A stretch of 64,000 nt of DNA from Ginglymostoma cirratum (Eukaryota), in assembly GCA_024137785.1 (NCBI GenBank), contig JAHRHZ010000062.1, positions 36,751,424 to 36,815,423 on the forward strand. The letters run 5' to 3'. The notes beneath the pieces were generated by a model. It saw nothing but the letters and a program-made list of their open reading frames with translations. It was not told the DNA's origin and ran no database searches. Position numbers and translations under genes: made by a program. The number at the start of each line of letters is the position of its first letter. Positions within the stretch are counted from its first letter, which is position 1. Shown here one piece after another: positions 1 to 54,519 of the stretch.

Positions 1-72
1 CTTACAGCACAAAAATTGACAAGACTGATGCCATAACTTTTGTCCCACTGAAAACTACATTTCCTGATTCCT

Positions 73-514
73 AGATAGTAAGAACTGCCGATGCTGGAGT
101 CAGAGATAACAGTGTGGATCTGGATGAACACAGCAGACCAGGCAGCATCAAAGGAGCAGGAAAGCTGATGTTTCAGGTTGGGACCCTTCTTCAGAAATCG
201 GGGAGGGGAAGGGGCCTCTGAAATGAATAGAGTGAGGGGGGGGTGGGGCTGGCGAAGGTAGTGGGATGGCGATAGGTGAGTGCAGGTAGGTAGTGGTGGG
301 GATTGGTCAGTGAGGTAGGAGGAGTGGATAGGTGGGAGAGAAGATGGACAGGTCAAAGAGGCGAGAATGGGAGGGAGGGTTGGTCTTGGGATGAGGACAT
401 TTTGAAGCTAGTAAAGTCCACATCGAGATCATCAGGCTGTAGGCTGTCAAGGCGGAATACGAGGTAATGCTCCTCCAGTTTCTAGGTGGCGTCATTGTGA
501 CACTGGATTTTCTC
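73..514 (-). mobile_element. Penelope-like element 3' fragment (end of GIY-YIG region, tail, decayed hammerhead)
   Basis: Reverse complement resembles the 3' part of the element at 31718-33172. Decayed hammerhead at 167-194. Flanked by a 13-bp TSD, tttcctgattcct (60-72) / tttcccgattcct (515-527). Confidence 0.85.
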
Positions 515-751
515 TTTCCCGATTCCTGTTTTTTGCCTCTGCCCTCACATCACTAGATTCTCATTCAAAATGGGCCTTGAGCGGAGCCTCAAACTTTTTT
601 TTTTGGCATCATGACTGCATATTTTCACCTACTGCACTTATCTCATCTACTATATCCACATCCTTGATGCTTCTGAAGTTGTCTTTTTTCCTACTACTCA
701 CCCAAGTTTCACCTTATAAAAGCTTCAAGTTTACTACTCAAATCCAAAGTT

Positions 752-1175
752 ACATAGAGTGAATCAGCATGGAAACAGACCCTTCAGTCCAACTCGTCTG
801 TGCTGACTAGACATCCCTATCTGACCTGGTCTCATTTGTTAGCATTTGTTCCATATCCCTCTAAACCCTTCCTATTCATATACCCTTCCAGATGACTTTT
901 AAATGTTGATGGTAACCATGATGTGGGGGTGCCTGTGGACTGTAACCTGGTATTGTGTGACTTCTGACTTTTAAACGTTGTGATTGTACCACCTCCACCA
1001 CTTCCTCTGGCAGCTCATTCCACACACACACCACCCTCTGCATGAAAATGTTGCCCCTCAGGTCCTTTTTAAATCTTTTTCCACTTAACGTAAATCTCTG
1101 CCCTCTAGTTTTGGACTCACCCACCCTATTAAAAAGACCTTGGCTATTTAGCCTATCCACACCCTTCATGATTTT
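752..1175 (-). mobile_element. CR1 LINE 3' end (ORF2 C-terminus and 3' UTR)
   Basis: ORF 876-1169 reads GLFNRVGESKTRGQRF..KRFKKDLRGNIFMQRVVCVWNELPEEVVE, a typical CR1 ORF2 C-terminus. Interrupted by a 56-bp insert at 909-964. Confidence 0.9.
909..964. mobile_element. 56-bp Penelope-tail micro-insertion with inverted structure
   Basis: 16-bp TSD tgacttttaaa(t/c)gttg at 893-908 and 965-980. The content matches the tail of the 46690-47200 element, partly inverted and partly direct. Confidence 0.7.
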
Positions 1176-50419: not shown

Positions 50420-51150
50420 ATGTTGTATGAAAATTCAAATATATAAAATATAGTTCTTCCTATTTATTCATCTTACCAGTTACATTCTCAAAAACTCCAT
50501 CAGGTTTGTTAAACATGATTGCCTTCCAGAAATTCAAGTCAGCTCGGCCTAATTATATCATAATTGTCTAATTGTAACATTACCATATCCCTTGTAATAG
50601 TTTCTACCATTTTGCCTACAACTTAGGTTATAAAGCTTGCAGCCCATCAAATTCTCTACTTTCTCTTTGTTAAATAAGGTTTGCTACCTTCCAATGTTTG
50701 CATCCATTATTTCTGCAATTATCTCTTGAAACCCTAGGCTGCTGGTTATCAGATTGAAGGGATTTGCATGATACTTAATCCCATTTACATTATAGTCTTA
50801 TTCCTTTGCTTGTAATGTTTCCATTAAATTCCTCAAACTTGCTACCAGCTTGGTTTCCCATTATTTCTGGAAGCAATTTATATTTTCTAGTGTGAACACA
50901 AACCAAAGCTTTTTTTTTAACTGTGTGTCATTTTCTTATTGCCCTGGATAAAATCATGTCTCCACCTCAAATAGTTTATCTTCTCTAATCTCTTCCCATT
51001 TATGTACTTATGGAAACATTCGCCCTCTGTTCTTGTTAGCCTTTATAGTCTATTCCTCTTCTGTTAACAATTTCTTGGTACTTTTTTGCTGAATTCTAAA
51101 ATCTCCCTCAACATTGGGTTACTACTCTTTGTGGCAACATTATAACATTG
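50420..51150 (-). mobile_element. Old CR1 LINE relic
   Basis: Diverged CR1 RT-region motifs (ctcaaaaactccatcaggtttgttaaacatgattgcc). Confidence 0.5.
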
Positions 51151-53294
51151 TTCCTTTGACCGCCTATTTGCCCAGAAATTCCGAGCAGGGTTAAAAGTTG
51201 GTCGGGGTTGGAACAGGGGCTATTGGTTTGCATTGGGTGCAGGGTGTCGGGTAAGGTTGGACTGGGATTCAGTTGGGTTAGGTTTGGACTGGGTTAGGTT
51301 TGGATCAGGGGCCTGTTGGGTCTAGTGGTAAGGAGGAAATTGGATCAGGTCAGCAGGCGCTGGATTCATGGAGAGGGATGGTTGGAGTGTAGTATTGGGT
51401 CAGATTGAGGGCTGACAAGTCAGTTAGGGTGTAGGGTGTGGCAAGTGCATCTGAGGTATCATATTAATTTAGGGGCTTGAGGGGGCACATGATGACTGGG
51501 AGGGGTATTTGATAAGCTGCAGCCACCAAGTGCCTGTGTGTTTTTCCTGTTAGGCATTTGTGCTATCTAGTTTCTTCAGGGACAATAGGAGAGGTGGAAG
51601 TGGGATGTAAATAGGATGCATTTGACTTTAATGAGAAACAAATACATGCAGGTAAAGTGGCCATCACTGAAGAGCAAGATTCAGAAGTCACCACTTTCTG
51701 CTTGAAGGGAAGCGACATTTTTTTTTCAATGCAGTTTATCATTTAATATGACCTGAAGAAATGCCTGAGACAGATAGAATAAGGAAACAGGGGATAGATG
51801 TATTCATTTAGTGTTAATTGTGTGTGAAGTGGTTGTATAAGTATAGGGAGCTAGTGCTCAATTGGGTATGAGTTTTATGGAGTGTGGTTAATGAAATAAA
51901 GCTCTCACTAAAAGTGTGGTCATGAAAATAATTTGAACAGTTAACATGGTATAACCAGGTAACATAGGTAACAGTGGGTGGTTGAGTCAAATGTAAAGTT
52001 TTAATATAATATAATCAAGCCCTGTTTTCTGAAAATGTCCCTTATGATCATTGGAAATGTGAAGTTACAATGTGGATCTGGACTACTTCTTTACCAAAAA
52101 GTAAGCAAGGTGTGGCCTTAGCGCTTGTACTACCTCATAGAAACAAGATTAGAAGCAAAGACGTTTGTTTTAGAATTGGAGCTGGATGACTTAAACATGA
52201 TGATTTGGACAGATTGTTAACGTTCATGGATAAAATGGATCAAAAAGATGATGGATTGACTGCTTATAAGACATTTTGACAAATTTAAAAAGACTGATGA
52301 CAGTACTATGGAAAAATACATAATGGAATTCAGTAGGTTGTATACAAGACTACAGAAATTTCATTTGGAAATTTCCCAGTCTGCACTGACATTTAATTAA
52401 TTGGACTGTGATAATGTACCAAGTATGAACAGACTTCTAATTTTGACTGGAATTAAATTCATGTACAAACCTACATTATGAGAACAAATTTCAGAAGAAC
52501 TAAAAAAGCTACGCAATCATTCCTGCCCAGCAGTATTCATAACCCAGGTGACAGCTGGTGATAAGACAGACAATGAAGGATGCAGTGTTAACAACTTGGA
52601 AAGACTATCTGGATACAGGTCACAAGTGACAGTATGGGAAGGCAAACTGTAGCTAATATAAATGAGGAGAGAAACGCTATTAATAATGTTGAGAAGCAAA
52701 GACAATTTGGGAGATACAATAAGGAAGTGAACTCCAGAAATACTCAGGGTGTAGCTAATCAATATTTCAGGCATGATTCAAATTAATACTATGCCATGAA
52801 CTGTTCTGAATAATATAATAAAACACTCAAAATAAAATATGAAATGAAATGGAGAATTTAGGGCAAGATGGAGATACAGATAAAAGAGACCATTGTATCT
52901 GGCACAAGAAGTTTCAACCCAGCAATGACTGTGTCAGTAGTAGAGTCTTTCAATTGTGCAGTATTGGACAGTGGACACATACCCGCTGTATGCAGAACAG
53001 ACTGGCTAGAATGATACCTAGACTCTGCGTAAAAAGATCAGGCAAAATGCAAGAATTTAAAGGTCCACAAGTTTCAGATTTGGGGATGATAATACACTAA
53101 AGTCTTTGAAAAATGTGGTTATTCCTTATAAAGTAGGTGGAATCAATCATTTAATAAGATAGATGTAGCATCCAGTGAAATATCATTTTAAGTAAATCAT
53201 TAATAAAGAAAGCACAGATAAAATCTGATACAGAAAACTACAAAAGAATTTGGGAAATCTGAAATTGTAATGTACACAATTGGGATGCTATTGT

Positions 53295-53877
53295 ATCAGA
53301 GATAAAAGGTACTGCAGATGCTGGAGAATNNNNNNNNNNNNNNNNNNNNNNNNNNNNNNNNNNNNNNNNNNNNNNNNNNNNNNNNNNNNNNNNNNNNNNN
53401 NNNNNNNNNNNNNNNNNNNNNNNNNNNNNNNNNNNNNNNNNNNNNNNNNNNNNNNNNNNNNNNNNNNNNNNNNNNNNNNNNNNNNNNNNNNNNNNNNNNN
53501 NNNNNNNNNNNNNNNNNNNNNNNNNNNNNNNNNNNNNNNNNNNNNNNNNNNNNNNNNNNNNNNNNNNNNNNNNNNNNNNNNNNNNNNNNNNNNNNNNNNN
53601 NNNNNNNNNNNNNNNNNNNNNNNNNNNNNNNNNNNNNNNNNNNNNNNNNNNNNNNNNNNNNNNNNNNNNNNNNNNNNNNNNNNNNNNNNNNNNNNNNNNN
53701 NNNNNNNNNNNNNNNNNNNNNNNNNNNNNGAGCAGGAAAGCTTGACGTTTCGGGCCTAGACCCTTCATCAGAAAATCAGATTTTCTGATGAAGGGTCTAG
53801 GCCTGAAACGTCAAGTTTTCTTGCTCCTATGATGCTGCTTGGCCCGCTGTGTTCATCCAGCCCCACAACTTGTTATC
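53295..53877. mobile_element. Fold-back Penelope-tail insertion with two opposed hammerheads (contains N gap 53330-53729)
   Basis: Perfect 14-bp TSD tgggatgctattgt at 53281-53294 and 53878-53891. 48-bp inverted repeat 53730-53777 / 53779-53826. Confidence 0.9.
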
Positions 53878-54519
53878 TGGGATGCTATTGTGTTCTTTTA
53901 ATAGAAGCTAACTTCTCTAAAGAAAGTAAAGAAGTGTTAATGACATCAAGGTGTGGAAATTTAGAAAGCTAAAAGTGATTTGTGTTAAAATCACAGGCAA
54001 TTGGCCCATCTTTCCTTTAATGCATTAAAGATTTTAGTAAATGAATCAGGAAAAAGGGATGTGGGTAATAACAAGCTCATAGATGAGATGTGAACATTTG
54101 TGAAAAAAACCTCAAAGGACACCATTATGGCCTAAAGTAAGACTGCCTTTAGCAAGAGATTTCAATCAGGTTGTGGCCATGGATTTAAAGATATGGGATA
54201 ATAAAAATGAAAACGTTTCACAGTTTGTGCATTTGGAACCAGATTCTGTCAATTAACAATAATACAAAGTAAAGGTAAGGAAACAGTTATGGATAAGTAA
54301 TGGAAAAGTGGATAGGGACCAGTCTTGGACCCCTGGCAAAATTTCTCACTGGTTGTGGATTGAATAGTTACGAATACAGCAGCAGAAAGCCCTTTTAGCA
54401 ATGGGGTATGTAAAAGAAACCATTCAGCAATGGAGAAAATGGTTCATAAAAGTTTGGCAGATCAGCCAAACTATAAATTTTCATCTGCACCCACATGGGC
54501 AGCTCAAACTACGATGTTA

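Follow-up and report, generated by a model that had tools for sequence, protein, structure and literature searches.

Short Penelope-like insertions in the genome of Ginglymostoma cirratum often begin at the 5' edge of a hammerhead motif, a boundary resembling a transcription start

A stretch of 64,000 nucleotides (nt) from the shark Ginglymostoma cirratum (assembly GCA_024137785.1, contig JAHRHZ010000062.1, positions 36,751,424 to 36,815,423 of the forward strand; hereafter the window) contains a series of short insertions made of the ends of Penelope-like elements (PLEs), in most of which a hammerhead ribozyme motif can be recognised. Examination of these insertions, and of related copies retrieved from the genome, places a 5' boundary shared by many of them at the 5' edge of the motif, where it looks like a transcription start. 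We consider it probable that these very short copies, termed here stubs, are run-off complementary DNAs (cDNAs) of an RNA whose transcription starts 4 nt before the hammerhead core, the reverse transcriptase (RT) being primed at the tail of the element and copying the ribozyme uncut. Tens of thousands of stubs would constitute a record of the points at which copying starts and stops, of interest for questions still open in the literature, such as the origin of the inverted ends, one-sided tails and tandems of PLEs and the role of their hammerhead.

Positions are numbered from C3 of the hammerhead (C3 = 0), with the predicted cleavage between +27 and +28. The first-pass annotation of the window had proposed that insert boundaries be mapped and compared with the hammerhead, and this comparison, anchored on the tail and therefore free of selection on the motif, shows that the ends are not random. 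The genome samples were drawn mostly from the first contigs (C1-C4). In family A, 100 listed places gave 99 distinct arms, 7 of which were dropped for having N abutting the start; of the remaining 92, 34 start at -8 to -1, 13 at 0 to +8, 21 at +9 to +54, 3 at -100 to -9 and 21 further upstream. A constant stopping rate predicts 2.3 starts at -8 to -1 (P about 6e-28), and the rate falls about 70-fold across -8, from 0.105 per nt within the step to 0.0015 just upstream. Family B, whose copies are older than those of family A and have less exact 5' ends, shows the same step: among 76 arms (from 75 of 100 listed places, none dropped), 29 start at -8 to -1, 15 at 0 to +8 and 11 upstream. In family C, none of 34 copies starts between -40 and -13.

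Several signs at this boundary are those expected of a transcription start. In 66 copies of family A, C3 is preceded by a TATA-like box at a distance of 35 nt; the distance is 33 nt in 5 copies of family B. Measured from the A found at -4, the box thus stands at -31 and -29, respectively. This A falls within an initiator-like sequence, CCATTTC in family A and TCAGTTC in family B, and fits the initiator consensus YYANWYY. Furthermore, a G precedes 13 of 18 family A arms starting at -8 to -4 versus 13 of 50 starting elsewhere (P=8e-4). The genome contains 4,344 matches with a non-template base at -5; in the first 100, scored by eye and with some junctions counted from both arms, this base is G in 60, A in 30 and T in 10. 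In a separate count, the base before starts at -5 is G in 40, A in 16 and T in 44. RNA sequencing (RNA-seq) reads contain two joints with a lone G before -5 (50 and 5 reads). Such an extra G is a mark of capped full-length insertions of L1 (PMC11702581).

The motif itself is, as far as predicted pairing allows it to be classified, a minimal type I hammerhead, with the core boxes, an extra base after A9, G10.1-C11.1, a palindromic helix III and helix I. The minimal hammerheads described in the pseudo-long terminal repeats (pLTRs) of PLEs present an extra base between 9 and 10.1, G10.1-C11.1, palindromic 15.2/16.2 positions and a short helix I (PMC4209133). The genome scan suggested by the first-pass annotation proved productive, a strict pattern giving 64,337 exact matches against 0 for the control; a Rfam scan at the gathering score gave no match. 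In 224 copies of family A, pairing of helix II reaches 96-100% (slid controls, 73% and 47%), and G10.1-C11.1 and the palindromic helix III are retained among the hammerheads of the retrieved loci. Helix I, of 4 bp, begins at -4 in families A and B, and its pairs change on both sides, in a compensatory manner, between four families. Copies within a family are kin, and this pairing evidence has to be counted by families rather than by rows. The fold predicted for the unit as a monomer is not the hammerhead fold (z=-0.89).

The parent elements were sought with a long copy from the window as query, which gave 133,398 first-look candidates in the genome (150 scored). One locus (L136) has an open frame with Pfam matches to RVT_1 (E=5.8e-7) and GIY-YIG (E=5.9e-5). 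The two truncated frames of the window gave no Pfam match by themselves and match the L136 family at 91-92%, and families B and C match the nuclease end of an L136-type protein. The family A parent carries a CX4CxxC linker, CNRRKCYTC (P0001), and a CX2-5CxxC zinc-finger linker between RT and endonuclease (EN) is the mark of Neptune and Nematis (PMC8557442). These predicted proteins support main parents of Neptune/Nematis type among the endonuclease-bearing (EN+) PLEs, the first-pass annotation having suggested Neptune; the two clades are not separated here. No zinc-finger linker was seen in the translated end of the family of the insert at 2508, which is for this reason called Poseidon-like.

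The organisation of the whole unit was deduced from 30 loci chosen on the 5' part of the open reading frame (ORF), 19 of which are truncated inside the ORF, 5 are partial tandems running upstream and 6 are unit-length. The latter start at -4, -3, -4, 0, about +7 and +28, so that unit-length copies with RT and GIY-YIG share the start region of the stubs. The ATG lies at +166. Overlapping loci give the order hammerhead-tail-ORF-3' untranslated region (UTR)-hammerhead-tail, the presence of both ends in one copy being deduced from them. Partial tandems (5/30), inverted copies (85 pairs) and a one-sided tail are further features shared with EN+ PLEs.

At the other extremity, the 3' ends fall into two clusters about 35 nt apart, near +93 and +128, whether the copy is a stub or long, and these define a near and a far tail site. 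Head-to-head arrangements are common, with 3,807 junctions in the genome within 30 nt at the motif edge. The 85 pairs taken from the retrieved loci, which are not an unbiased sample, have at least one arm at -8 to +2 in 72 cases and both arms at the edge in only 26; a target site duplication (TSD), mostly of 14-16 nt, flanks 27, and in all 23 classifiable TSD-flanked pairs one arm ends at the near and the other at the far site (P=1e-7). The simplest reading of these pairs is that they consist of two target-primed cDNAs, one per nick. For the inverted forms alone, it has also been proposed that one cDNA folds back and primes itself (PMC3846280), an unlikely origin here, but one that retains some weight, since the arms within a pair are more alike than random arms (7.4% versus 11.9% differences) and junctions are frequently short imperfect palindromes. 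However, self-priming does not account for outer ends that both lie on RT start sites, near plus far in every classifiable pair, nor for arms that mostly begin at different places, and an anole PLE extends both strands in vitro (PMC11167929). Clearly discordant arm haplotypes were not found, so that a pair may stem from one RNA or from two.

Among the 85 pairs, 83 junction types are distinct. Some junctions (L284, L292, L304 and others in the genome junction list) hold fillers in which the first 5-15 bases of the unit recur several times over, a pattern expected if priming was repeated or if ends were joined with templated insertions. Joins of template-jump type at -3 to -5, in which an ORF-start piece or a hammerhead fragment meets another unit, were seen at L269, L296/L297, L397 and L150 and in RNA-seq joints. 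The stub geometry also appears at kilobase scale in L136 (G000:C144:17462500-17472499), where a single TSD of about 15 nt encloses a head-to-head pair of long family A copies, whose open frames comprise 850 and 703 codons, with one arm per tail site. A fixed mini-element, considered on account of a recurrent 450-480-bp spacing of opposite hammerheads, was discarded, as the inspected pairs enclose a 400-N block with the junction repeated on both sides.

Taking these data together, the following process can be proposed for the origin of stubs from a transcription start. RNA polymerase II would initiate at the A of -4, directed by the TATA-like box at -29/-31 and the initiator, the extra G being a copy of the cap. 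RT would prime at the tail nearest the cap and run off the RNA 5' end after 95-135 nt, sometimes adding a C opposite the cap. Both nicked target strands would prime one cDNA each, one per tail site, and the two cDNAs would be joined head to head by microhomology and short templated fill-ins; alternatively, a cDNA would join the target, giving a stub, or jump on, giving tandems. Longer copies would derive from the 3' copy of the same tail. Taking into account that the unit RNA has hammerhead and tail at both ends, the most likely origin of stubs is cDNA that was primed at the cap-proximal tail and ran off the template, and they would be dead ends, because the upstream TATA-like box is lost. In a few arms, the sequence between the ORF start and -3/-4 is covered (L269, L361). 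The template could be either the element's own messenger RNA (mRNA) or a short RNA, copied in trans, that a truncated copy would produce from its terminal promoter. A loop variant tried as a marker of origin from the 5' copy was rejected, being a whole subfamily (28,734 matches) present in long and short copies.

A broader scheme, in which we place slightly less than even confidence, is that PLE mRNA carries a hammerhead at its cap and is terminally redundant, and that RT acts as a dimer, with priming on both nicked strands at the two tail sites. Priming at the cap-proximal tail would yield a cDNA of strong-stop type, which is either inserted as a stub or jumps to another template. If true, this scheme would account at once for stubs, inverted copies, the restriction of the tail to one side and the partial tandems, by which the promoter is regenerated. 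The stubs themselves lead to sharp predictions, namely a capped start 4 nt before the core, an RNA template that is uncut and, in each two-armed insertion, priming once at the near and once at the far site.

It has to be noted that a number of observations weigh against a transcription start as the source of the boundary. In families A and B, helix I opens with the very base at which the copies start, and promoter and helix I edge could not be separated as its cause. For family C, a start near -8 would be expected from the position of the TATA-like box, yet the breaks of about 21 short copies, found in the first 100 of 229 matches and judged by eye, spread from 0 to -10 and are most frequent at -5, which is the helix I edge of this family. 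T is as common as G before -5 starts (44 versus 40), and the G could also come from C3 of the opposite arm or from re-priming on the core GAT. A TSD stands beside the start in 14 of 70 loci, 8 without an extra base and 1 with a lone G, and both unit-length copies starting at -4 lack the G. The poly(A) RNA-seq library (a second run comprises 115 reads) showed no site at which many molecules begin. The Poseidon-like family displays no 5' pile-up in 11 copies; the hits of a further search for this family, picked with a long query, are unusable for boundary testing. Finally, extension past the far site is no commoner in stubs (16/172) than in long copies (10/118; P=0.84), so this comparison does not point to the cap-proximal tail of the full mRNA as their source.

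These points bear most directly on a structural explanation, according to which a folded or protein-bound hammerhead halts RT at the 5' edge of helix I. Both the coincidence of the start with helix I in families A and B, where compensatory pairs attest to the helix, and the -5 peak of family C are in its favour, and even so it appears improbable: RT meets the 3' strand of helix I first and would presumably already have opened it, G is in excess before starts at -4 to -8, a TATA-like box is present at fixed spacing in three families, about 7 of the 21 family C breaks lie at -7 to -10, and copies that pass the site then stop at a very low rate.

The first-pass annotation had viewed the insertions as a retrozyme- or SINE-like population (SINE, short interspersed nuclear element) mobilised in trans, that is, a self-propagating lineage derived from short masters. 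This proposal, now very unlikely, would agree with the high copy number, with an RNA-seq depth over the hammerhead-tail about ten times that of the 3' UTR, with the promoter-like end of every long copy, which could yield short RNAs, and with the non-autonomous PLE derivatives already described (PMC8557442, bioRxiv 2026.07.22.740005). However, stubs have no private haplotypes (the commonest type comprises 41 short and 40 long copies), and in 45 of 95 their core is identical to that of a long copy, in 30 of 95 to that of the 5' unit of a unit-length or tandem copy. Haplotypes shared with long copies, together with one-off junctions, thus argue that there is no SINE or retrozyme lineage, and neither the own subfamilies nor the fixed structure of SINEs were found. 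Stubs also lack the TATA-like box. No head-to-tail hammerhead arrays occur in the window, occasional two-unit tandems were seen in the loci (L261), and genome-wide arrays were not searched. The excess of tail reads is as expected from read-through of inserts, both strands being equally represented and 86% of the reads continuing into unrelated sequence; one back-joint within the unit (25 of 40,031 reads) is explicable by genomic tandems in this poly(A) library.

It had further been suggested that the ribozyme influences where the inserts end. Self-cleavage, by which the copied RNA end would be made by the ribozyme and the inserts would begin at the cut, is extremely unlikely. There is no significant excess of starts at the predicted cleavage site, the interval +26 to +31 holding 5 of 21 downstream starts in family A (P=0.13), while family B has 1 of 21 there, and most stubs hold the whole uncut core; cleavage is, moreover, dispensable in vitro (PMC11167929). 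RNA-seq reads do not pile up at the site, although a poly(A) library is unsuited to this question. The compensatory conservation of the hammerhead fold would speak for cleavage, as would one of the six unit-length copies (L228), which starts exactly at the predicted cut (+28). Ordinary random 5' truncation with no special site, which does hold for the inserts at 60/515 and 2508 and for 24 of the 92 family A arms, these being long, is practically untenable as a general explanation in view of the fall across -8, its repetition in family B and the empty interval of family C.

The insertions that gave rise to this work can be read against the boundary defined above. Ten had been listed in the window as Penelope tails within TSDs, and the ten duplications do exist (9-16 nt, 7 with one mismatch; in random pairs of 16 x 16-nt windows, a 9-nt match with at most one mismatch occurred 6 times per 1000 trials). 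Every one of the inserts is a PLE end, though at least four families are represented. As to the hammerhead reported in most of them, it is recognisable in 9, with an intact core in only 3. Six start 0-6 nt from the core, as had been noticed, whereas none ends near it, their 3' ends corresponding to the two tail sites about 93 and 128 nt past C3. These ten, followed in coordinate order with the further copies found in the window, are:

60..527, minus strand: older subfamily of family A, 5'-truncated, about -420 to +124; TSD 60-72/515-527; intact core 171-194; not hammerhead-bounded.
893..980, unstranded: miniature family C head-to-head insert (909-964); antisense far tail end plus sense near tail end; 16-nt TSD.
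2508..2747, plus strand: 5'-truncated copy of the Poseidon-like family, whose start lies 99 nt before a decayed core (2627-2659); TSD of 9 nt.
15431..15554, minus strand: family A stub of 98 bp; starts 6 nt before an intact core (15512-15535); near tail end; perfect 13-nt TSD.
16067..16529, unstranded: family B head-to-head insert; decayed cores; arms reaching well upstream of the motif; 9-nt TSD.
27402..27539, minus strand: family B stub of 112 bp; a few inverted bases, then AGTT (-4); decayed core; 13-nt TSD.
31365..31560, unstranded: family B head-to-head insert; minus arm from core edge to near site, short plus arm to far site; 14-nt TSD.
31717..33171, plus strand: long 5'-truncated family A copy of parent type, with RT end, zinc-finger linker, GIY-YIG, 3' UTR, TATA-like box, initiator, hammerhead (33045) and tail.
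36751..36878, minus strand: family A stub, -3 to +126, unlisted in the first-pass annotation; no TSD found.
37086..37187, plus strand: family A stub from core (37090) to near site; weak 8-nt TSD candidate.
37193..38308, plus strand: second long 5'-truncated family A copy, -968 to +133.
39945..40062, plus strand: family B stub of 100 bp; G, then start at -3; core G8 changed to A; 9-nt TSD.
41996..42122, minus strand: family B stub of 105 bp; start G plus AGTT (-4); core G5 changed to A; 11-nt TSD.
46788..47200, plus strand: family C copy retaining 280 nt or more of upstream sequence, its left end being approximate; hammerhead 47081; full tail; previously unlisted.
53281..53893, unstranded: family A head-to-head insert; intact cores at 53748-53771 (minus) and 53785-53808 (plus), each arm starting 3-4 nt ahead of its core; left arm to far site, right arm to near site; 16-nt TSD.

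The inserts at 60 and 2508 are ordinary truncations extending into or near the ORF end. That at 893/965 has no hammerhead and starts downstream of the motif position; its empty-site paralogue, with a single copy of the TSD, is found at 55229-55262. In the insert at 53281, 400 of 581 bases are N, and its length and interior cannot be read. N blocks in the retrieved loci have sizes of 400, 100 or 10 only, and 35 of the 50 blocks of 400 adjoin such arms. This would be in keeping with inverted repeats at which the assembly was left with gaps, although a gap and a mask look the same here.

Other observations concern the surroundings of these copies. The segment 36751-38308 accumulates three PLE insertions (two stubs and a long copy) in 1.6 kb. 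A 220-bp direct duplication (39659-39878 and 41777-41996, 96% identical) has distinct family B stubs (39945, 41996) at or just past the right end of each duplicate. Positions 44709-46680 are taken up by a long, degenerate (GT)/(GA) microsatellite containing two runs of N, and other dispersed repeats lie at 3870-4176, 23390-23624 and 33626-33917, and at 38351-39519 and 56417-57929 (pairs 65-86% identical).

With regard to previous knowledge, the parts of the mechanism are already known, while the mapped 5' boundary and its link to a start site are absent from the literature found. No paper was found on shark PLE hammerheads beyond one chondrichthyan genome included in a retrozyme survey (bioRxiv 2026.07.22.740005), in a search outside which most subscription journals lay; 'shark' in PMC6155905 refers to fold shape only. 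Nor was any found on PLE 5' ends at a start site, the supplementary figures of PMC11167929, Repbase and Dfam being outside the search.

Animal non-LTR (long terminal repeat) retrozymes (PMC7229834; bioRxiv 2026.07.22.740005) share with the stubs their non-coding nature, type I hammerhead, kinship with PLE pLTRs and TSDs of more than 4 bp. They form, however, head-to-tail arrays that give circular RNA, in contrast to the single or head-to-head stubs described here, which have no lineage of their own. Caution is therefore advisable with genome-wide hammerhead counts and with 'retrozyme monomers' in such genomes, which may be mostly dead PLE stubs. In Penelope of Drosophila virilis (PMC2377424), the transcript likewise starts inside the pLTR, and a tandem arrangement is needed for activity; it uses an internal promoter devoid of a TATA box, and an intron precedes the hammerhead, whereas here a TATA-like box lies upstream and the motif directly follows the likely start.

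The biochemistry is best known from PAc, a Poseidon element of the green anole studied in vitro (PMC11167929), in which two adjacent internal RT start sites define the tail, in RNA of the pLTR-ORF junction, both strands are nicked and extended, and uncut RNA serves as template, a scheme that the shark data fit. The tail of PAc corresponds to the ORF start and that of the shark element to the 5' UTR (ATG at +166); the main text of that study does not discuss the 5' ends of genomic copies. For the minimal hammerheads of PLE pLTRs (PMC4209133), thousands of single motifs were likewise ascribed to truncated PLEs, and opposite-strand pairs 100-700 bp apart were also recorded, with 4,000-9,000 motifs in the richest vertebrates compared with the 64,337 strict matches reported here. 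Boundaries are not mapped in the account given there, whereas in the shark helix I starts at the likely first base of the RNA.

Finally, the canonical EN+ PLEs Neptune and Nematis (PMC8557442, PMC3846280) have in common with the family A parent the RT with a C-terminal GIY-YIG, the CX4CxxC linker and heavy 5' truncation, as well as partial tandems, inverted 5'-truncated copies, a one-sided tail of 30-40 bp and TSDs, and TATA- and initiator-like motifs have been predicted in the rotifer pLTR, as they are here. Truncation is given as variable in these accounts; in Ginglymostoma cirratum, it presents instead a sharp boundary at the hammerhead edge, common to unit-length copies, with an extra G and a counted rule of one near and one far tail end.

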